DNA of 64,000 nt, taken from Escherichia coli. GTDB lineage: Bacteria; Pseudomonadota; Gammaproteobacteria; Enterobacterales; Enterobacteriaceae. The stretch lies in assembly GCF_017348835.2 (NCBI RefSeq), contig NZ_CP071375.1; one strand, written 5' to 3'. Shown here one piece after another: positions 1-62,273 of the stretch. The position numbers and the translations under genes are program-made. The notes beneath the pieces are model-generated. The model saw only the letters and a list, made by a program, of their open reading frames with translations. It had not been told where the DNA came from and ran no database searches. Numbering within the stretch: position 1 is the stretch's first letter; each line of letters opens with the position of its first letter.

Positions 1-370
1 GCTGGATGCACTGGAGCAGGCGTTGTGGGCCCGTCGGCCGTCCGGCACAATCCATCACAGTGATAAAGGTTCTCAGTATGTATCGCTGGCCTACACGCAG
101 CGGCTTAAGGAAGCCGGATTACTGGCATCAACAGGGAGTACTGGCGACTCGTATGACAACGCGATGGCTGAGAGCATCAATGGTCTTTACAAAGCGGAGG
201 TAATACACCGTAAGAGCTGGAAAAACCGTGCAGAAGTGGAACTGGCCACACTAACGTGGGTGGACTGGTATAACAATCGACGATTGCTGGAAAGGCTGGG
301 CCATATTCCTCCGGCAGAAGCAGAAAAAGCTTATTATGCTTCCATCGGAAATAATGATCTGGCAGCCTGA
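1..370 (+). CDS. IS3-family transposase OrfB, C-terminal portion (5' end lies outside the window)
   Basis: Translation of ORF 23-370 shows IS3-family integrase-core C-terminal features; the reading frame is open to the window start. Confidence 0.85.
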   Translation, partial: LDALEQALWARRPSGTIHHSDKGSQYVSLAYTQRLKEAGLLASTGSTGDSYDNAMAESINGLYKAEVIHRKSWKNRAEVELATLTWVDWYNNRRLLERLGHIPPAEAEKAYYASIGNNDLAA

Positions 371-412
371 GTTCACAGATAAAACACTCTCCAGGAAACC
401 CGGGGCGGTTCA
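1..412 (+). mobile_element. Right-end portion of an IS3-family insertion sequence (IS629/IS1203-like); the window starts inside the element
   Basis: ORF 23-370 is the C-terminal part of an IS3-family OrfB transposase (YDNAMAESINGLYKAEV motif region). The sequence after its stop (c. 371-412) is the reverse complement of a TGAACCGCCCCGGGTTTCCTGGAGA-type terminal inverted repeat. Element identity below family level is from memory. Confidence 0.8.
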
Positions 413-1119
413 AAATGGTGAACTTGTCCTCGATAACAGACCACCACCCCTTCTGCACCTTTAGTCACCAACAGCATGGCGATCTCATACTCTTTTGCCA
501 GGGCGCATATATCCCGATCGTTCTGTGTTTTTCCACTGATAAGTCGCCATTCTTCTTCCGAGAGCTTGACGACATCCGCCAGTTGTAGCGCCTGCCGCAA
601 ACACAAGCGGAGCAAATGCTCGTCTTGCCATAGATCTTCACGAATATTGGGATCGAAGCTGACAAAACCTCCGGCATGCCGGATCGCCGTCATCGCAGTA
701 AATGCGCTGGTACGCGAAGGCTCGGCAGACAACGCAATTGAACAGAGATGTAACCATTCGCCATGTCGCCAGCAGGGCAAGTCTGTCGTCTCTAAAAAAA
801 GATCGGCACTGGGGCGAACCATAAACGTAAATGAACGTTCCCCTTGATCGTTCAGATCGACAAGCACCGTGGATGTCCGGTGCCATTCATCTTGCTTCAG
901 ATACGTGATATCGACTCCCTCAGTTAGCAGAGTTCTTTGCATTAACGCACCAAAAGGATCATCACCGACCCGACCTATAAACCCACTTATTCCGCCTAAT
1001 CTGGCGATTCCCACCGCAACGTTAGCTGGCGCGCCGCCAGGACAAGGCAGTAGGCGCCCGTCTGATTCTGGCAAGAGATCTACTACCGCATCCCCTAAAA
1101 CCCATACTTTGGCTGACAT
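413..1119 (-). pseudogene. cscK: cscK fructokinase (PfkB family), 3'-truncated by the IS insertion
   Basis: ORF 373-1119 begins MSAKVWVLGDAVVDLLPE, the N-terminus of csc-regulon fructokinase. The native sequence ends after ...GQVHHF (about codon 235) and the remaining residues are read from IS sequence; the C-terminal PfkB DTTGAGD-type motif is missing. Confidence 0.8.
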
Positions 1120-1334
1120 TTTTTTCCCTTAAATTCATCTGACTTACGCATAGTGATAAACCTCTTTTTCGCAAAATCGTCATGGATTTACTAAAACATG
1201 CATATTCGATCACAAAATGTCATGGTTAACGTTAACATTTGTGATATTCATCGCATTTATGAAAGTAAGGGACTTTATTTTTATAAAAGTTAACGTTAAC
1301 AATTCACCAAATTTGCTTAACCAGGATGATTAAA
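1120..1334. promoter_or_regulatory. Divergent cscK / cscA control region with two identical 12-bp palindromes GTTAACGTTAAC (c. 1225-1236 and 1289-1300) and TGTGA-containing CRP-like sequence
   Basis: Two perfect copies of the palindrome GTTAACGTTAAC about 64 bp apart in an AT-rich divergent intergenic region next to a LacI-family repressor gene; candidate CscR operators. Confidence 0.55.
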
Positions 1335-2768
1335 ATGACGCAATCTCGATTGCATGCGGCGCAAAACGCACTAGCAAAACTTCATGAGCACCGGGGTAAC
1401 ACTTTCTATCCCCATTTTCACCTCGCGCCTCCTGCCGGGTGGATGAACGATCCAAACGGCCTGATCTGGTTTAACGATCGTTATCACGCGTTTTATCAAC
1501 ATCACCCGATGAGCGAACACTGGGGGCCAATGCACTGGGGACATGCCACCAGCGACGATATGATCCACTGGCAGCATGAGCCTATTGCGCTAGCGCCAGG
1601 AGACGATAATGACAAAGACGGGTGTTTTTCAGGTAGTGCTGTCGATGACAATGGTGTCCTCTCACTTATCTACACCGGACACGTCTGGCTCGATGGTGCA
1701 GGTAATGACGATGCAATTCGCGAAGTACAATGTCTGGCTACCAGTCGGGATGGTATTCATTTCGAGAAACAGGGTGTGATCCTCACTCCACCAGAAGGAA
1801 TCATGCACTTCCGCGATCCTAAAGTGTGGCGTGAAGCCGACTCATGGTGGATGGTAGTCGGGGCGAAAGACCCAGGCAACACGGGGCAGATCCTGCTTTA
1901 TCGCGGCAGTTCATTACGTGAATGGACTTTCGATCGCGTACTGGCCCACGCTGATGCGGGTGAAAGCTATATGTGGGAATGTCCGGACTTTTTCAGCCTT
2001 GGCGATCAGCATTATCTGATGTTTTCCCCGCAGGGAATGAATGCCGAGGGATACAGTTACCGAAATCGCTTTCAAAGTGGCGTAATACCCGGAATGTGGT
2101 CGCCAGGACGACTTTTTGCACAATCCGGGCATTTTACTGAACTTGATAACGGGCATGACTTTTATGCACCACAAAGCTTTGTAGCGAAGGATGGTCGGCG
2201 TATTGTTATCGGCTGGATGGATATGTGGGAATCGCCAATGCCCTCAAAACGTGAAGGCTGGGCAGGCTGCATGACGCTGGCGCGCGAGCTATCAGAGAGC
2301 AATGGCAAACTCCTACAACGCCCGGTACACGAAGCTGAGTCGTTACGCCAGCAGCATCAATCTATCTCTCCCCGCACAATCAGCAATAAATATGTTTTGC
2401 AGGAAAACGCGCAAGCAGTTGAGATTCAGTTGCAGTGGGCGCTGAAGAACAGTGATGCCGAACATTACGGATTACAGCTCGGCACTGGAATGCGGCTGTA
2501 TATTGATAACCAATCTGAGCGACTTGTTTTGTGGCGGTATTACCCACACGAGAATTTAGACGGCTACCGTAGTATTCCCCTCCCGCAGGGTGAGACGCTC
2601 GCCCTAAGGATATTTATCGATACATCATCCGTGGAAGTATTTATTAACGACGGGGAAGCGGTGATGAGTAGTCGAATCTATCCGCAGCCAGAAGAACGGG
2701 AACTGTCGCTTTATGCCTCCCACGGAGTGGCTGTGGTGCAACATGGAGCACTCTGGCAACTGGGTTAG
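1335..2768 (+). CDS. cscA: Sucrose-6-phosphate hydrolase / invertase (GH32)
   Basis: ORF 1326-2768. WMNDPNGL GH32 motif near the N-terminus. Start moved to the second ATG (MTQSRLH...) which has AGGA 8 nt upstream, giving 477 aa. Confidence 0.9.
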   Translation: MTQSRLHAAQNALAKLHEHRGNTFYPHFHLAPPAGWMNDPNGLIWFNDRYHAFYQHHPMSEHWGPMHWGHATSDDMIHWQHEPIALAPGDDNDKDGCFSGSAVDDNGVLSLIYTGHVWLDGAGNDDAIREVQCLATSRDGIHFEKQGVILTPPEGIMHFRDPKVWREADSWWMVVGAKDPGNTGQILLYRGSSLREWTFDRVLAHADAGESYMWECPDFFSLGDQHYLMFSPQGMNAEGYSYRNRFQSGVIPGMWSPGRLFAQSGHFTELDNGHDFYAPQSFVAKDGRRIVIGWMDMWESPMPSKREGWAGCMTLARELSESNGKLLQRPVHEAESLRQQHQSISPRTISNKYVLQENAQAVEIQLQWALKNSDAEHYGLQLGTGMRLYIDNQSERLVLWRYYPHENLDGYRSIPLPQGETLALRIFIDTSSVEVFINDGEAVMSSRIYPQPEERELSLYASHGVAVVQHGALWQLG

Positions 2769-2775
2769 CATAATA

Positions 2776-3771
2776 TCAGGTGGAACAACGGATCAACAGC
2801 GGGCAAGGGATCCGCGTCACACTTCCCCCTTCACGACCTTCAATAATATGCAATGCAGCTTCCCGCCCGATAATGTCATGTGGAAGCTGAATTGTGGTCA
2901 GCGGCGGTAAAAACAGATGCCCGACGCCAACCAGATTATCAAAGCCCATTACGGCGACATCCTGCGGGATACGTACCCCCTTCGCCAGGAGAACCTGATA
3001 AGCCACAAAGGCTGCGCGATCGTTACCACATATCAGAACATCAAAATCTGGTTTGCCCGATTTGAAGTGGTCATTGAGTAAACTTGCGAGATCGGTGTAG
3101 TGATCATCACCTGTTGCCATGTGAAATTGTTTCACCTCAGCCAGATCTCGTCCAGCATCACGCCAGGCCTGCTCAAATCCCTGCCGACGATACCCTGTTA
3201 CCAACGCACTTTCCGGTAGCCAGAAGCATAACGGTTGACGATAGCCCGCCGCGAGCAAATGCTGTGTTGATTCATATTGTGCAGTGTAATCATCAGGGAT
3301 ATAACTGGGTAACGCTGGGTCATCCGCCACACAGTTCGCCAATACAATATTTTCACCATACAGAGACTCAGGCAGCGTGATATGTCGCAGCCCCATTGTA
3401 GTATAGATAATGCCATCCGGACGGTGGGCAAGCAGCTGACGTGCCGCGCGGGCAGCGTCATCTTCAGAAAAAATATTGATTAAAAAACTATTCCAGCCGA
3501 ACTCGCTGGCGGTTTGCTCAATGGCAAGCAGAATATCAACAGAGAAAGGAGTGGTAGCAGTGTCCTGCGCCAGCACGGCGAGAGTCGACGGCTTACGTCC
3601 TTGAGCGCGCATCTTACGGGCGGAAAGATCAGGAACATAATTCAGGGTCTGGATTGCCTGCAATACGCGGTCACGCGTTGCAGGACGCACAGATTCTGCA
3701 TTATGCATCACCCGGGAGACTGTCATCATCGACACTCCCGCCAGGCGTGCGACATCCTTTAATGAAGCCAT
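2776..3771 (-). CDS. cscR: LacI-family sucrose operon repressor
   Basis: ORF 2776-3957 trimmed to the internal ATG giving MASLKDVARLAGVSMMTVSRV (LacI-type HTH) and a 331-aa product; convergent with cscA. Confidence 0.88.
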   Translation of the reverse strand: MASLKDVARLAGVSMMTVSRVMHNAESVRPATRDRVLQAIQTLNYVPDLSARKMRAQGRKPSTLAVLAQDTATTPFSVDILLAIEQTASEFGWNSFLINIFSEDDAARAARQLLAHRPDGIIYTTMGLRHITLPESLYGENIVLANCVADDPALPSYIPDDYTAQYESTQHLLAAGYRQPLCFWLPESALVTGYRRQGFEQAWRDAGRDLAEVKQFHMATGDDHYTDLASLLNDHFKSGKPDFDVLICGNDRAAFVAYQVLLAKGVRIPQDVAVMGFDNLVGVGHLFLPPLTTIQLPHDIIGREAALHIIEGREGGSVTRIPCPLLIRCST

Positions 3772-4001
3772 ACCCAAGCCGTTTGTCGTAAAACGGGCAC
3801 TGTAGCAGAAACAGACGTCACTGGCGAGATCCAACGCCCTATCACCTGACACGGCAATACAATAAAAAATAACAATAATTCCCGGCCAATTGTCCCCAAT
3901 TCCGCCTCTGTTCTCGCCAACGAGTAACCATATAGGCAAGTAAGTAAAACATGCCAACTGGCATCGCCAACCTGGAGAAGAAAATATAAATATGGATCAT
4001 T

Positions 4002-4220
4002 GTGCTGCCGCTGTATCCCGACATCAGCCCGGAAATTATTGCGATTGCTATCGGTTCAGGTGCAATTGGCTGCACTATCGTTACGGACTCGCTTTTCTGG
4101 CTGGTGAAGCAATATTGCGGCGCTACGCTCAATGAAACATTTAAATACTATACGACAGCGACATTTATCGCTTCAGTCGTCGCTCTGGCGGGCACATTCC
4201 TGCTGTCATTTATCATCTAA
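4002..4220 (+). pseudogene. dsdX: 3' remnant of dsdX (D-serine/gluconate-family permease), C-terminal ~72 codons only
   Basis: ORF 4002-4220 encodes a hydrophobic C-terminal segment ending ...[12 protein letters not shown], immediately upstream of dsdA as in the dsdXA operon; no N-terminal part and no dsdC are present. Confidence 0.75.
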
Positions 4221-36503: not shown

Positions 36504-37751
<1,248 letters not shown>

Positions 37752-37754
37752 CTA

Positions 37755-37815
37755 AAACATAGCCTTTGCTATGTTTCATGCTATGCCAAACGAGAATGAT
37801 TATCAAATTCATTTA
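37755..37815. promoter_or_regulatory. mntH promoter region: MntR-box palindrome AAACATAGC-CTTT-GCTATGTTT (c. 37755-37776) and Fur-box-like GAATGATTATCAAATTCATT (c. 37793-37815)
   Basis: Perfect 9-bp-arm inverted repeat immediately upstream of the mntH start, plus an adjacent AT-rich GATAAT-type Fur-like sequence; mntH is known to be MntR- and Fur-regulated. Confidence 0.7.
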
Positions 37816-38077
37816 AATGGGTTGTGGTGATTTCTCTGATAGACCAGGATTATGACTACGAAAAGATTGATGACTTGAATGTTATGGTTATGTTTAATGT
37901 TAGCACATTTACATAACTTTCAGCTTCCATACACAACATAGCAGAAATGTATGACAGCTCACTATTTTTGAAGCTTGTCACAGGACGTCATTATAGTGTG
38001 TGTCAGATCTCGTTTTCCTTAACCATGTTACATAGAATGTGCACGGAAATTTAACCTGCCTCATATTTGGAGCAAAT

Positions 38078-39280
38078 ATGGACCGCGTCCTTCATTTTGT
38101 ACTGGCACTTGCCGTTGTTGCGATTCTCGCACTGCTGGTAAGCAGCGACCGCAAAAAAATTCGTATCCGTTATGTTATTCAACTGCTTGTTATCGAAGTG
38201 TTACTGGCGTGGTTCTTCCTGAACTCCGACGTTGGTTTAGGCTTCGTGAAAGGCTTCTCCGAAATGTTCGAAAAACTGCTCGGATTTGCCAACGAAGGGA
38301 CTAACTTCGTCTTTGGTAGCATGAATGATCAAGGCCTGGCATTCTTCTTCCTGAAAGTGCTGTGCCCAATCGTCTTTATCTCTGCACTGATCGGTATTCT
38401 CCAGCACATTCGCGTGTTGCCGGTGATTATCCGCGCAATTGGTTTCCTGCTCTCCAAAGTCAACGGCATGGGCAAACTGGAATCCTTTAACGCCGTCAGC
38501 TCTCTGATTCTGGGTCAGTCTGAAAACTTTATTGCCTATAAAGATATCCTCGGCAAAATCTCCCGCAATCGTATGTACACCATGGCAGCAACGGCGATGT
38601 CCACCGTATCTATGTCCATCGTTGGTGCATACATGACCATGCTGGAGCCGAAATATGTCGTTGCGGCGCTGGTACTGAACATGTTCAGCACCTTTATCGT
38701 GCTGTCGCTGATCAACCCTTACCGTGTTGATGCCAGTGAAGAAAACATTCAGATGTCCAACCTGCACGAAGGTCAGAGCTTCTTCGAAATGCTGGGTGAA
38801 TACATTCTGGCAGGTTTCAAAGTTGCCATTATCGTTGCCGCGATGCTGATCGGCTTTATCGCCCTGATCGCCGCGTTGAACGCACTGTTTGCCACCGTGA
38901 CTGGCTGGTTTGGCTACAGCATCTCCTTCCAGGGCATCCTGGGCTACATCTTCTATCCGATTGCATGGGTGATGGGTGTTCCGTCCAGCGAAGCACTGCA
39001 AGTGGGCAGTATCATGGCGACCAAACTGGTTTCCAACGAGTTCGTTGCGATGATGGATCTGCAGAAAATTGCTTCCACGCTCTCTCCGCGTGCTGAAGGC
39101 ATCATCTCTGTGTTCCTGGTTTCCTTCGCTAACTTCTCTTCAATCGGGATTATCGCAGGTGCAGTTAAGGGTCTGAATGAAGAGCAAGGTAACGTGGTTT
39201 CTCGCTTCGGTCTGAAACTGGTTTACGGCTCTACCCTGGTGAGTGTGCTGTCTGCGTCAATCGCAGCACTGGTGCTGTAA
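38078..39280 (+). CDS. nupC: Nucleoside:H+ symporter (CNT family)
   Basis: ORF 38039-39280 trimmed to the internal ATG ([20 protein letters not shown]), 400 aa. Confidence 0.93.
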
Positions 39281-39290
39281 GACCATACAT

Positions 39291-39322
39291 AAAAAAGCCG
39301 GGGATAATTCCCCGGTTTTTTT
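39291..39322. terminator. Bidirectional intrinsic terminator between nupC and pdeA
   Basis: AAAAAAGCCGGGGATAATTCCCCGGTTTTTTT hairpin with flanking A/T runs. Confidence 0.8.
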
Positions 39323-39329
39323 ACGCCTG

Positions 39330-41519
39330 TTAATCAGCTAATGGCTGCGGGCGACCAATCAAATACCCTTGCAGATATTGCACCCCGAGCTTATGCAATA
39401 ACGCCTGCTGCTGTTGCGTCTCGACAAACTCCGCAACCACACTCAATGACTTCGCTTTCGCCAGATCGGTAATTGATCTCACAATCATCGCATCCAGCGT
39501 ATTCGTGACGATATCTTTCACAAAGACACCATCAATTTTGATGATATCAGCCTGCAAACGCTTTAACCGTTCGTAGTTGGCATAGCCGGTGCCAAAGTCA
39601 TCAATCGCAATCCGGAAGCCAAACTTATGCAGTTGCTCGATGTTGTACATGCTGCTTTCTGCGTTAGAAAACGCCTGCTCCTCGGTGATCTCAAGAATGA
39701 CCGCCTGCGGGGAGATGTGATAACGCTTAAACAGACGAATAATCCGCCCGGCAATATTCTTTTGTAGCAGCGTGAGCGGCATTAAATTAACTGAAAAGCG
39801 CGGGCCTTTTTTGTCGCAAGGGTGTGTTGCCAGCCACTTCAACAAGGATTCCAGCACTTGCAAATCAAAACGCGCGCTAAGGTTAAACTGAGCAATAAGG
39901 GGCAGAAACTTATCCCGGGTCATAATGCCGCCGTCATACTTCAGTCGCGCGAGGATCTCATCATAACCTTCACCCTCTTTGTTGCGAATTGGCTGGGCGT
40001 AGAGCAGCAAATCACCCTGATCTAACGCCGTGCGAATGGTATTCAGCAATAGCACTTGTTTAGTGGTCTGCCCGGAAACCATCTCCTCTCTGCTATCCAG
40101 CGCCAGCACATGATGATGTGCGCAGGATTGCTCCGCCAGCCAGCTTAACTGCCCCAACAAGGGTTGCAGGGTTTCCTGATTTCCATCAAAACGCCCCCAG
40201 GCAGCACCATAGCCCATATCCAGCCCGGTATTGTTCCAGTGAATTTGCCGACTATTCAGGATGTTAACCATATGCTGGAGTCGCCCTTCCGTTTCCGGCC
40301 CGCTCAGCACTAACAGCAGTTCACTACCCGGCAATTGATACAACTTTTCGTTTTCCTGCATCAACGGCAGCAGCGTACGGTAAATTGATCGGATACAGTG
40401 AACGCGCATCATTAACCCGTAATGACGACTCATAAACTCAAGATTATCAATGCGCAGGCAGCAAAAACTCTTGCCCGCCTCTTGCTCCGGCGCTTGTTCC
40501 AACGCACGAAAATTGGGTAGGAGCGTTAACGGATCGGTCAGCGCCTGCAAATGCCAGCGTCGATTAAGCCATTCACTGCGATGATAAATGCGCACCATAT
40601 AGAGCAGGCAAACGCTAAAGGAAATCAGCACCGCAAGAATAAATGCCAGCGAATATTCGGTTTCCACCCCTTGCAAAAAGTTCTGGTTGTAATTCAGCAG
40701 GCAAAGCGTTGAAACAGCCCAGGTGAGATTTAAAAACGGATAGCGAAGCTTACCGACCCCGAGGGTAAAGATGATGAAGAAAACGGGTACCAGGTAACCG
40801 GCAATAAAGTCGTTTTCATAAGGTGTGCACAACAGAAGTAGCAGCACGCTTAACGCTGCCAGCCAGCTTAAGGTAAATGCGCGTTTCTCTTTGCCCAACG
40901 ACGGAGCGATATCCCTGCGCCACAATATCTGCGCAAAGTGGGGACTTACAATCATGCGAGTGAGATAGTAGAAAAGCATGTTGTAAATCAGCACAGCGGT
41001 GAAAAGGCTTAGTAAATCAACAACCGTGAAAATGGCATCCGCATCGCCGAAAAAGGTGGATATCTTTAGCGGGAAATCAAAGAAGCTCCCCACAAAATAC
41101 ATGCTGCATTTGATGCCGATCGGCGTCACCAAACCAAGCCAGAACAGACGTTGCCAGACATATCGGCTGGTCAATCCATAACGCCAACGCGTCCCCAGCT
41201 GCCAGCGTAATATTGCGCAGGCACACAACACGACAAACGTCTGGCTGCCGAGCATGACCGCAGTCTGTAAAAAAGAGAGATGAAAGTTCCACAGATTGGT
41301 GCAAAACATCCCGCATAAAACGGGAACGACACCGCGCCAGCCAAAGATAAACAAGATTGACAGCATTACGCACAGTGGCATCCACGCCAGAAAGATATAA
41401 CTGGAATGGATAATGGCAAGTGGCGAAATAAAACGGGATAGCTGAATAAGTACCACGGTGAGCGTAAACGCTAGTGTGAATATCTTGATATTTTTTATCA
41501 GGTTATGCTCCACAAACAT
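39330..41519 (-). CDS. pdeA: Membrane-anchored c-di-GMP phosphodiesterase (MASE1-GGDEF-EAL)
   Basis: ORF 39330-41579 trimmed to the internal ATG (MFVEHNLIKNIKIF), 729 aa; N-terminal multi-TM sensor domain, degenerate GGDEF and EAL domain. Confidence 0.9.
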   Translation of the reverse strand: MFVEHNLIKNIKIFTLAFTLTVVLIQLSRFISPLAIIHSSYIFLAWMPLCVMLSILFIFGWRGVVPVLCGMFCTNLWNFHLSFLQTAVMLGSQTFVVLCACAILRWQLGTRWRYGLTSRYVWQRLFWLGLVTPIGIKCSMYFVGSFFDFPLKISTFFGDADAIFTVVDLLSLFTAVLIYNMLFYYLTRMIVSPHFAQILWRRDIAPSLGKEKRAFTLSWLAALSVLLLLLCTPYENDFIAGYLVPVFFIIFTLGVGKLRYPFLNLTWAVSTLCLLNYNQNFLQGVETEYSLAFILAVLISFSVCLLYMVRIYHRSEWLNRRWHLQALTDPLTLLPNFRALEQAPEQEAGKSFCCLRIDNLEFMSRHYGLMMRVHCIRSIYRTLLPLMQENEKLYQLPGSELLLVLSGPETEGRLQHMVNILNSRQIHWNNTGLDMGYGAAWGRFDGNQETLQPLLGQLSWLAEQSCAHHHVLALDSREEMVSGQTTKQVLLLNTIRTALDQGDLLLYAQPIRNKEGEGYDEILARLKYDGGIMTRDKFLPLIAQFNLSARFDLQVLESLLKWLATHPCDKKGPRFSVNLMPLTLLQKNIAGRIIRLFKRYHISPQAVILEITEEQAFSNAESSMYNIEQLHKFGFRIAIDDFGTGYANYERLKRLQADIIKIDGVFVKDIVTNTLDAMIVRSITDLAKAKSLSVVAEFVETQQQQALLHKLGVQYLQGYLIGRPQPLAD

Positions 41520-41726
41520 GAGTACACTACTCTCACTGATCGGGGTTTTCAGGCACACAAATAATAAGTTTATTCGCATCGCGAAGCAAACAGGGGCCAG
41601 CCTGTTGCCGATTTTTCATCCAATGATGCTTTCACCAGGCGGCACTAACCCGGACGTAGACTGTATTACAAAAGCGGCAAAAAGCAGAGACAAAAAACCC
41701 CCGCTTTGCAGCGAGGGTTGGAAATT

Positions 41727-41802
<76 letters not shown>

Positions 41803-41841
41803 ACGATGCGTTTACGTACCAAATTTGCTGGGTGCAAAATT

Positions 41842-41917
<76 letters not shown>

Positions 41918-41949
41918 GTCACGTAAAGCTTGTCGAGTTGACGGGCGGC

Positions 41950-41978
41950 ATCATATGAATTCCGCCCGAATGTGTCAA
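41950..41978 (-). promoter_or_regulatory. Stable-RNA-type sigma-70 promoter for the tRNA-Ala pair (TTGACA-17-TATGAT, GC-rich discriminator)
   Basis: Minus strand reads TTGACAcattcgggcggaattcaTATGATgccgcccg; consensus -35, 17-bp spacer and GC-rich discriminator typical of stringently controlled promoters. Confidence 0.65.
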
Positions 41979-42152
41979 CGGCAAATTGCAACGTGTAGTT
42001 TCAATCGCTGAAAAATCAGGCAAATGAACAATTTTGGAAAACCGCTCGCATTCAGTAGTTATTCATGTCACGGTTTCCTGTAAAGTGGTGCTATAAAATG
42101 AACTACTAATAGACCCACATACATTCAGGGAATTGTTATGTTCAAGGAGAGG

Positions 42153-42497
42153 ATGACACCAGATGAACTTGCCAGACTGACCGGCTATAGCCGCCAGACC
42201 ATTAATAAATGGGTACGCAAGGAAGGCTGGACGACGTCACCAAAACCAGGCGTCCAGGGTGGCAAAGCCCGACTGGTTCACGTCAATGAACAGGTTCGTG
42301 AATATATTCGTAATGCTGAACGTCCAGAAGGTCAGGGAGAAGCGCCTGCCCTTTCTGGTGATGCGCCGCTTGAAGTATTGCTGGTGACACTGGCGAAAGA
42401 GATGACGCCAGTTGAACAAAAACAGTTTACATCCTTGCTTCTGCGGGAAGGGATTATCGGATTGTTACAACGCTTAGGGATTCGCGATAGCAAATAA
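42153..42497 (+). CDS. yfeC: Small putative DNA-binding protein (DUF1323, HTH)
   Basis: ORF 42138-42497 trimmed to MTPDELARLTGYSRQTINKWV, 114 aa; paralogous to the adjacent yfeD. Confidence 0.85.
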   Translation: MTPDELARLTGYSRQTINKWVRKEGWTTSPKPGVQGGKARLVHVNEQVREYIRNAERPEGQGEAPALSGDAPLEVLLVTLAKEMTPVEQKQFTSLLLREGIIGLLQRLGIRDSK

Positions 42498-45045: not shown

Positions 45046-45077
45046 CTATCTGCGATTTGTAAGATTGATTTTTCTTC

Positions 45078-45104
45078 TCAAGTTCCTTGTTCTTCTACCG
45101 ATAT
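45078..45104 (+). promoter_or_regulatory. Candidate sigma-28 (FliA)-type promoter upstream of the FlxA-like ORF (TCAAGTTC-N11-ACCGATAT)
   Basis: Matches the class 3 flagellar promoter consensus TAAAGTTT-N11-GCCGATAA at 6/8 plus 6/8 positions with exact 11-bp spacing, about 30 bp upstream of the ATG. Confidence 0.45.
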
Positions 45105-45132
45105 TACCTCGTACAGTGACGAGGACTGAACA

Positions 45133-45474
45133 ATGGCCACTATCTCTTCAACTTCAATTCCTTCCATACAAACACAGAGTAGTAACAGGGCATCACAAGG
45201 TAGCGATGTTGCTTCACAAATCGCGCGGATAAGTCAGCAAATCATCAAACTCACTCAACAAATTAAAGAGATTGTAGACACTAGCGGCAGTGCTGAAGAC
45301 AAGCAAAAACAGGCCGAATTGATTCAACAGCAAATCACCCTACTGGAAACACAACTGGCGCAGTTGCAGAGACAGCAGGCAGAAAAGGCGCAGGAGAAAG
45401 AGCAGCGTTTGTCTCTGAATGTATCCCTTCTAAATCCTGTTGAAAATACGACTCATATCGATATCTATATCTGA
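45133..45474 (+). CDS. Small coiled-coil protein, FlxA-like family (113 aa)
   Basis: ATG preceded by GAGGA at about 8 nt; Ser/Thr/Gln-rich N-terminus, central Q/K/E-rich heptad coiled coil (…[35 protein letters not shown]…) and C-terminal …THIDIYI, resembling FlxA-type proteins. The 3' end overlaps the yfeR stop by 10 nt. Family assignment is from memory. Confidence 0.6.
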
Positions 45475-56888: not shown

Positions 56889-57257
56889 ATGAAGAAAATC
56901 ATTTGTCTGGTCATTACACTACTAATGACACTCCCCGCTTACGCGAAGTTAACTGCCCATGAAGAAGCCCGCATCAACGCCATGCTGGAGGGATTAGCAC
57001 AGAAAAAGGATTTGATATTTGTGCGCAACGGTGATGAACATACCTGCGATGAAGCGGTTTCTCATCTGCGTCTGAAGCTCGGCAATACCCGTAACCGCAT
57101 TAACACTGCCGAGCAGTTTATTGATAAGGTTGCTTCGTCATCATCGATTACCGGGAAGCCGTATATCGTGAAGATGCCCGGTAAGAGCGATGAGAATGCA
57201 CAGCCTTTTTTACATGCGTTAATTGCGCAGACGGATAAAACGGTGCCTGCGCAATAA
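56889..57257 (+). CDS. yfeK: Small secreted protein of unknown function
   Basis: 122-aa ORF with signal peptide ([19 protein letters not shown]). Confidence 0.85.
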
Positions 57258-62116: not shown

Positions 62117-62273
62117 TGCGCACCCTTATAAATTTAATGACTTTCTAATAGCCATCATATTTATAACGGACGTGAAAGGAGTAACGGTTTTATATACCGT
62201 TTGGTGATTTGGAAGTTGAAAAGGGAATAAGACGAAATCCTCCCCACACATGCAGGGAGGAAACAGAGGTGAA

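Follow-up and report, generated by a model that had tools for sequence, protein, structure and literature searches.

The insertion sequence IS186 is said to prefer the target 5'-GGGG(N6/N7)CCCC (Chong et al., 1985; SaiSree et al., 2001; both as quoted in PMC6925257). In the promoter of lon, it inserts spontaneously at one identical position and in both orientations (PMC3045373), and the copies at this hot spot have been reported as very unstable, with precise excision (PMC3861542). A further copy is annotated on the chromosome of Escherichia coli K-12 MG1655 (NC_000913.3), where 'insertion sequence:IS186C' occupies 2514273-2515617 and contains insL3 (b2394), between nupC (b2393) and pdeA (b2395); this insertion has long been known. 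The remaining known elements that bear on this junction are the bidirectional intrinsic terminators of convergent genes, in which a stem-loop rich in G+C stands between an A-run and a T-run, after the stop codons of both genes.

Here we compare with these systems the nupC/pdeA junction in a 64-kb stretch of E. coli DNA (the window). With respect to IS186C of MG1655, the locus and the target are the same, and the window presents the exact empty form of the K-12 site; however, the element itself is absent, and no IS186 terminal repeat occurs anywhere within the 64 kb. The lon and nupC/pdeA sites share the GGGG-N6/7-CCCC target, a single fixed position, the acceptance of either orientation and a duplication of ~10 to 12 bp. 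They differ in that the lon site is a promoter, where insertion results in a selectable Lon-deficient phenotype, whereas the nupC/pdeA site is a predicted terminator lying between two non-essential genes. As for the bidirectional intrinsic terminators, the spacer hairpin has the same G+C stem-loop, the same A-run and T-run flanks and the same place after both stops, and is structurally nothing unusual, though known here from prediction. We know of no phenotype for an IS186 insertion at the nupC/pdeA terminator, and a full-text literature search for IS186 together with nupC returned no paper. What we add is modest, namely the identity of the terminator stem with the IS186 target, the loss of this terminator that is predicted for K-12, and the occupancy of the site, in two orientations, in ~17% of the genomes surveyed.

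The spacer and its predicted hairpin

In the list of open reading frames, the TAA stop of nupC falls at 39278-39280 on the + strand, and the spacer that separates it from the convergent stop codon of pdeA (Table 1) reads GACCATACATAAAAAAGCCGGGGATAATTCCCCGGTTTTTTTACGCCTG. A junction query of 1,049 bp is matched at 100% by the genome of strain PE164 (NZ_CP114128.1; pig, China). Within the spacer, A6 stands upstream and T7 downstream of the CCGGGG/CCCCGG core of the hairpin, and a consensus terminator scan places a U-tract 3' of the stem on each strand, viz., T7 at 39316-39322 on the + strand and CT6, the complement of the A6 at 39291-39296, on the - strand. Folded as RNA, the hairpin has a minimum free energy of -22.7 to -23.4 kcal/mol on the + strand and -24.1 to -24.4 kcal/mol on the - strand, with z-scores of -4.75 to -5.85 and, in every test, 0 of 200 dinucleotide-preserving shuffles as stable. 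The G+C stem begins 18 nt past the nupC stop and 15 nt past the pdeA stop. By its stability relative to the shuffles, its U-tract on both strands and its position after convergent stops, the hairpin has the properties of an intrinsic terminator. We accordingly describe the spacer as a predicted bidirectional Rho-independent terminator common to nupC and pdeA, which is ordinary in kind and at which transcripts of both genes probably terminate in vivo. The sequence-only reading had proposed a 49-bp spacer with one bidirectional hairpin, and the ends of the open reading frames, the folding and the terminator scan on both strands all confirm it.

Table 1. Features of the nupC/pdeA junction and of the IS3-family element, in window coordinates
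Feature	Position	Strand	Sequence or description	Basis
IS3-family element, end	1..412 (end approximate)	+	1,310 bp in full, cut by the window start; interrupts cscK	PE164 annotation
nupC CDS	38078..39280	+	nucleoside:H+ symporter	ORF list; PE164 annotation mapped at 100% identity
Spacer	39281..39329		exactly 49 bp between the convergent stops of nupC (+) and pdeA (-)	
Full predicted hairpin	39290..39323	both	15 pairs and a 4-nt loop; the A-run pairs with the T-run	
G+C core of the stem	39298..39315	both	CCGGGG, ATAATT, CCCCGG	terminator scan
IS186 preferred-target match	39300..39313		GGGGATAATTCCCC; fits GGGG(N6/N7)CCCC	pattern search
Direct repeat around IS186 in K-12 and S1	39302..39311		GGATAATTCC	junction sequences; BLAST overlap
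pdeA (yfeA) CDS	39330..41519	-	c-di-GMP phosphodiesterase family; stop codon 39330-39332	ORF list; PE164 annotation

Scanned against Rfam with a permissive E-value, the stretch 37400-42300 yielded only two tRNA-Ala genes above threshold. One of the weaker matches, to Leu_leader (RF00512), extends over the hairpin (39218-39322, +) with 28.1 bits and E = 0.0086 against a gathering threshold of 50; we attribute this match, which lies inside the nupC 3' end, to a generic likeness between a hairpin with a U-tract and the attenuator portion of the model. The permuted-tmRNA matches in the same scan are sub-threshold echoes of the tRNAs.

IS186C of K-12 and the target in the stem

Comparison of the window with K-12 by BLAST yields two alignments, 37536-39312 and 39301-42186, which flank IS186C and overlap by 12 bp, this overlap being the target duplication; nothing in the window aligns with the IS186 segment of K-12. 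An IS186 copy at this K-12 junction had been proposed in the sequence-only reading, correctly by the NC_000913.3 annotation, and the alignment with K-12 that it had suggested as a check finds IS186C between the two flanking alignments and the window empty. The left flank in K-12 ends in GCCGGGGATAATTCC, after which come the IS and then GGATAATTCCCCGG; at the left junction AAAAAAGCCGGGGATAATTCC gives way to CATAAGCGCTAACTTAAGGGTTG, and at the right junction CAACCCTTAAGTTAGCGCTTATG gives way to GGATAATTCCCCGGTTTTTTT. If the IS, which measures 1,339 bp when bounded by the 23-bp terminal repeats, is taken out of K-12 together with one direct repeat, the 49-bp spacer of the window results with no other change. 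The repeat GGATAATTCC measures 10 bp with the IS ends taken as CATAAG...CTTATG, but any length from 8 to 12 bp (at the maximum 39301-39312) is a valid reading, because the bases beside the IS ends resemble the target. The 23-bp terminal repeat of IS186, CATAAGCGCTAACTTAAGGGTTG, is nowhere to be found in the 64 kb, even when as many as 3 mismatches are tolerated.

The pattern GGGG(N6/N7)CCCC occurs once in the 64-kb window, at the hairpin, with 1.16 occurrences expected by chance; the presence of the motif is unremarkable on its own, and what is informative is solely that it coincides with the point of insertion in K-12, not any enrichment. The alignment with K-12 places IS186C inside the hairpin and not elsewhere, where it would have counted against this interpretation, and IS186 with the GGATAATTCC repeat is found at exactly the same position in K-12, 510016, S1, and 2013C-4991. 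Judged by the published target pattern, the stem of the predicted terminator is itself a perfect IS186 target, which explains the site of insertion.

The predicted structures on the two sides of the insertion differ sharply from that of the intact spacer. On the nupC side, the fold of -22.7 kcal/mol in the window compares with -10.4 kcal/mol in K-12 with IS186C (z -0.52), and on the pdeA side the corresponding values are -24.1 and -9.4 kcal/mol (z +0.10). Neither gene keeps its U-tract in K-12, and there is only a short remnant of the stem on each side. K-12 is predicted, on the basis of these folds, to have lost the shared nupC/pdeA terminator on both sides. The reference strain is unsuited to measuring the function of this terminator in vivo, since its hairpin is divided by IS186C.

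Strain background and further differences from K-12

The window represents in essence PE164 or a strain almost identical to it, the identity to PE164 being 99.995% over 40.5 kb and 100% over 23.5 kb (BLAST). A chimeric query, composed of a pdeA segment and an internal IS186 segment, had 4 matching places in the chromosome of PE164, the median for a genome being 1, which implies three IS186 copies elsewhere in PE164 and the lack of IS186 in more than half of the E. coli genomes; a second chimeric query, with the tRNA-Ala genes, is consistent with 3 copies in PE164 after subtraction of a background of 4 places per genome. In this near-identical relative, the nupC/pdeA site is empty although IS186 is present in the genome. 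Hence, the absence of IS186 claimed in the sequence-only reading holds for the junction but does not extend to the strain, which is not IS186-free to judge from the copies in PE164. The same reading had placed an IS3-family copy at cscK, and this is borne out by the 25-nt terminal inverted repeats beginning TGAACCGCCCCGGG, by the transposase C-terminus (NCBIfam IS3-family model, E = 3.5e-37), and by the split fructokinase gene, of which the 5' fragment of cscK lies at 412-1119 on the - strand (E = 1.6e-118). We presume from its size and ends that the element resembles the IS629/IS1203/IS3411 group. With IS186 missing from the junction and an IS3-family copy in cscK, the IS content does differ from that of K-12, as had been asserted, which is unsurprising.

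K-12 is without the csc genes at this locus and has dsdC and dsdX there instead. The csc sucrose locus (window 1-4002), with a LacI-family regulator gene (presumably cscR), cscA and the IS-interrupted cscK, replaces dsdC and the 5' part of dsdX of K-12, and a truncated dsdX remnant adjoins dsdA; a gene for an oligosaccharide MFS transporter (presumably cscB) is annotated in PE164 beyond the window start. Three further segments distinguish the window from K-12. Between lysV and yfeR, 407 bp (45057-45463), carrying a small gene for an FlxA-like family protein in the PE164 annotation, stand in the place of 4.56 kb with xapR, xapB, xapA, and yfeN in K-12 (2521372-2525928). Between yfeK and cysM (window 57251-57255), the window lacks the yfeS region (~960 bp, K-12 2537705-2538665), and between cysP and ucpA (window ~62229-62232) it lacks ~142 bp (K-12 2543645-2543786). 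The nupC 3' and pdeA 3' alleles at 38781-39829 are rare, with 2 of 5,426 records matching at >=99% and the others at 95-99% (typically <=98.4%); further 5' in pdeA (40300-41300), another pig strain, F2_81, has the identical sequence. The segment 38781-39829 may be recombinant.

Two variants of the junction itself were also encountered. The spacer corresponding to 39281-39329 is replaced by one of 142 bp in at least 13 complete genomes, represented by locus L006 (NZ_ABACVG020000001.1, 1001-1142), in which the hairpin occurs twice, the second copy being imperfect (CCCTGC arm), around GCCTGATAAGCGTAGCGCATCAGGC, a sequence that we take to be REP-like. This arrangement looks as if the same terminator had either received a palindromic element or been duplicated. 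In ST2747 (locus L007, NZ_CP007394.1, 3709-3908, corresponding to window ~37750-39400), nupC is wholly deleted, and pdeA, annotated as 24 nt longer (2,214 nt), directly adjoins the sequence upstream of mntH. As the deletion ends close to the hairpin that IS186 targets, an adjacent deletion mediated by IS186 is conceivable.

Occupancy of the junction and its history

Our survey covered 5,426 complete E. coli genomes from RefSeq, a sample rich in K-12 laboratory derivatives. The junction is uninterrupted, with one continuous match across it, in 4,460 of them, including members of unrelated lineages such as O157:H7, O111:H8, ST131, and IAI1-type strains. The K-12 left junction is present in 472 genomes and the right junction in 474 (~473 with the K-12 orientation), the resulting 8.7% being inflated because the collection is rich in laboratory K-12 derivatives. 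A class with IS186 at the same position and with the same repeat, but in the opposite orientation, was noticed as matches ending 23 bp into the IS and first seen in S1; its junction is found in 465 genomes, among them E. coli C, ATCC 8739, and many clinical isolates. The remaining ~25 genomes include other states, e.g., the nupC deletion in ST2747. The junction accordingly exists in three principal states, empty in ~82% of the genomes and occupied in one orientation in 9% and in the other in 9% (~17% in all). As estimated from place counts, ~940 of the ~8,460 IS186 copies (~1/9) in complete E. coli genomes are at the hairpin. At the junctions of 2013C-4991 (2872-3983) and 510016 (2756-3868), the IS186 transposase genes are annotated as pseudogenes, one frameshifted and the other with an internal stop, which suggests that some copies at this site are decaying and are probably old or immobile.

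Given that most genomes, from lineages far apart, have the junction empty, the simplest view is that this state is ancestral, and it is K-12, rather than the strain of the window, that is unusual. We consider it likely, with a probability of about 90%, that the spacer is an intact, unoccupied shared terminator, whose stem is an IS186 target hit in K-12 and ~17% of genomes, and that the window keeps the empty state. Under this proposal, transcripts arriving from either gene would end in a stem-loop and U-tract supplied by one G+C-rich hairpin between the A-run and the T-run, and the GGGG-N6-CCCC core of the stem doubles as the preferred integration target of IS186. In the occupied genomes, an IS186 inside the hairpin has duplicated ~10 bp, from the loop and the inner part of the stem, and parts each gene from its U-tract, while the window preserves the empty state, which is the common one and most likely ancestral.

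Two other accounts of the window's spacer deserve consideration. Rather than mainly a terminator, the hairpin could be what is left of a mobile element, or a site recognized by one, such as a palindrome of the REP/BIME type, that lies between the two genes by chance, and the 142-bp variant, with its doubled hairpin around the REP-like GCCTGATAAGCGTAGCGCATCAGGC, does indicate that the palindrome joins in rearrangements. However, the full anatomy of an intrinsic terminator on both strands (G+C stem, short loop and U-tract directly 3') and its location 10 to 18 nt past each stop codon are features of a terminator, and the hairpin is single-copy in the window and bears no likeness to the REP-like sequence, with no mobile-element coding capacity adjoining it; we hold such an origin to be highly improbable. 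The empty site might alternatively be secondary, with an ancestor having carried IS186 and its precise excision having restored the hairpin. Such a history would be in keeping with the instability and precise excision of IS186 at the lon hot spot (PMC3861542) and with the three IS186 copies elsewhere in PE164, which point to present or past activity of the element in this lineage. Against this, there is no footprint, the spacer being identical to the K-12 flanks minus the IS and one repeat; the empty state is that of the 82% majority, in distant lineages; and the flanks of the window, with 17 to 21 differences per 1,200 bp from the occupied haplotypes, do not make it a close relative of the sampled occupied lineages. 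Excision is therefore very unlikely in our estimate, and an ancestral empty state is most likely.

How often the intact terminator was invaded is a separate question, on which flanks of 200 bp did not separate the lineages and flanks of 1,200 bp gave partial resolution. A tentative interpretation, to which we assign somewhat less than even odds, is that the hairpin is a natural and repeatedly used IS186 hot spot, accepting both orientations on identical flanks, with each insertion removing the shared terminator; the occupied state would then have arisen more than once. The repeated use of a hot spot fits both the 510016 haplotype, in which the K-12 orientation is found on another nupC haplotype (15 of 1,200 bp different), and the two orientations of S1 and K-12. 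A rather unlikely, though by no means negligible, alternative posits a single ancient insertion that was inherited vertically and later inverted in situ to give the second orientation, in which case no hot spot would be implied. This would accord with the flanks of K-12, which match those of the oppositely oriented S1 and 2013C-4991 with 0 differences over 1,200 bp to either side, and with the near-uniform junction haplotypes within each class (99.8-100%). The divergent haplotype of 510016 argues against it, though recombination within nupC could still explain that strain, as do the perfect fit of the site to the target consensus and the documented insertion of IS186 in both orientations at one position of lon (PMC3045373).

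The importance of these observations is small beyond record-keeping, the window representing the common form of a junction that is disrupted in the K-12 reference. The presence and orientation of IS186 at this junction provide a simple three-state marker across E. coli. If the hairpin is indeed a repeatedly used hot spot, the 3' ends of nupC and pdeA in K-12 would be non-native, with read-through into or out of IS186. Data from K-12 on the terminator and 3'-UTRs of nupC and pdeA do not describe most E. coli.
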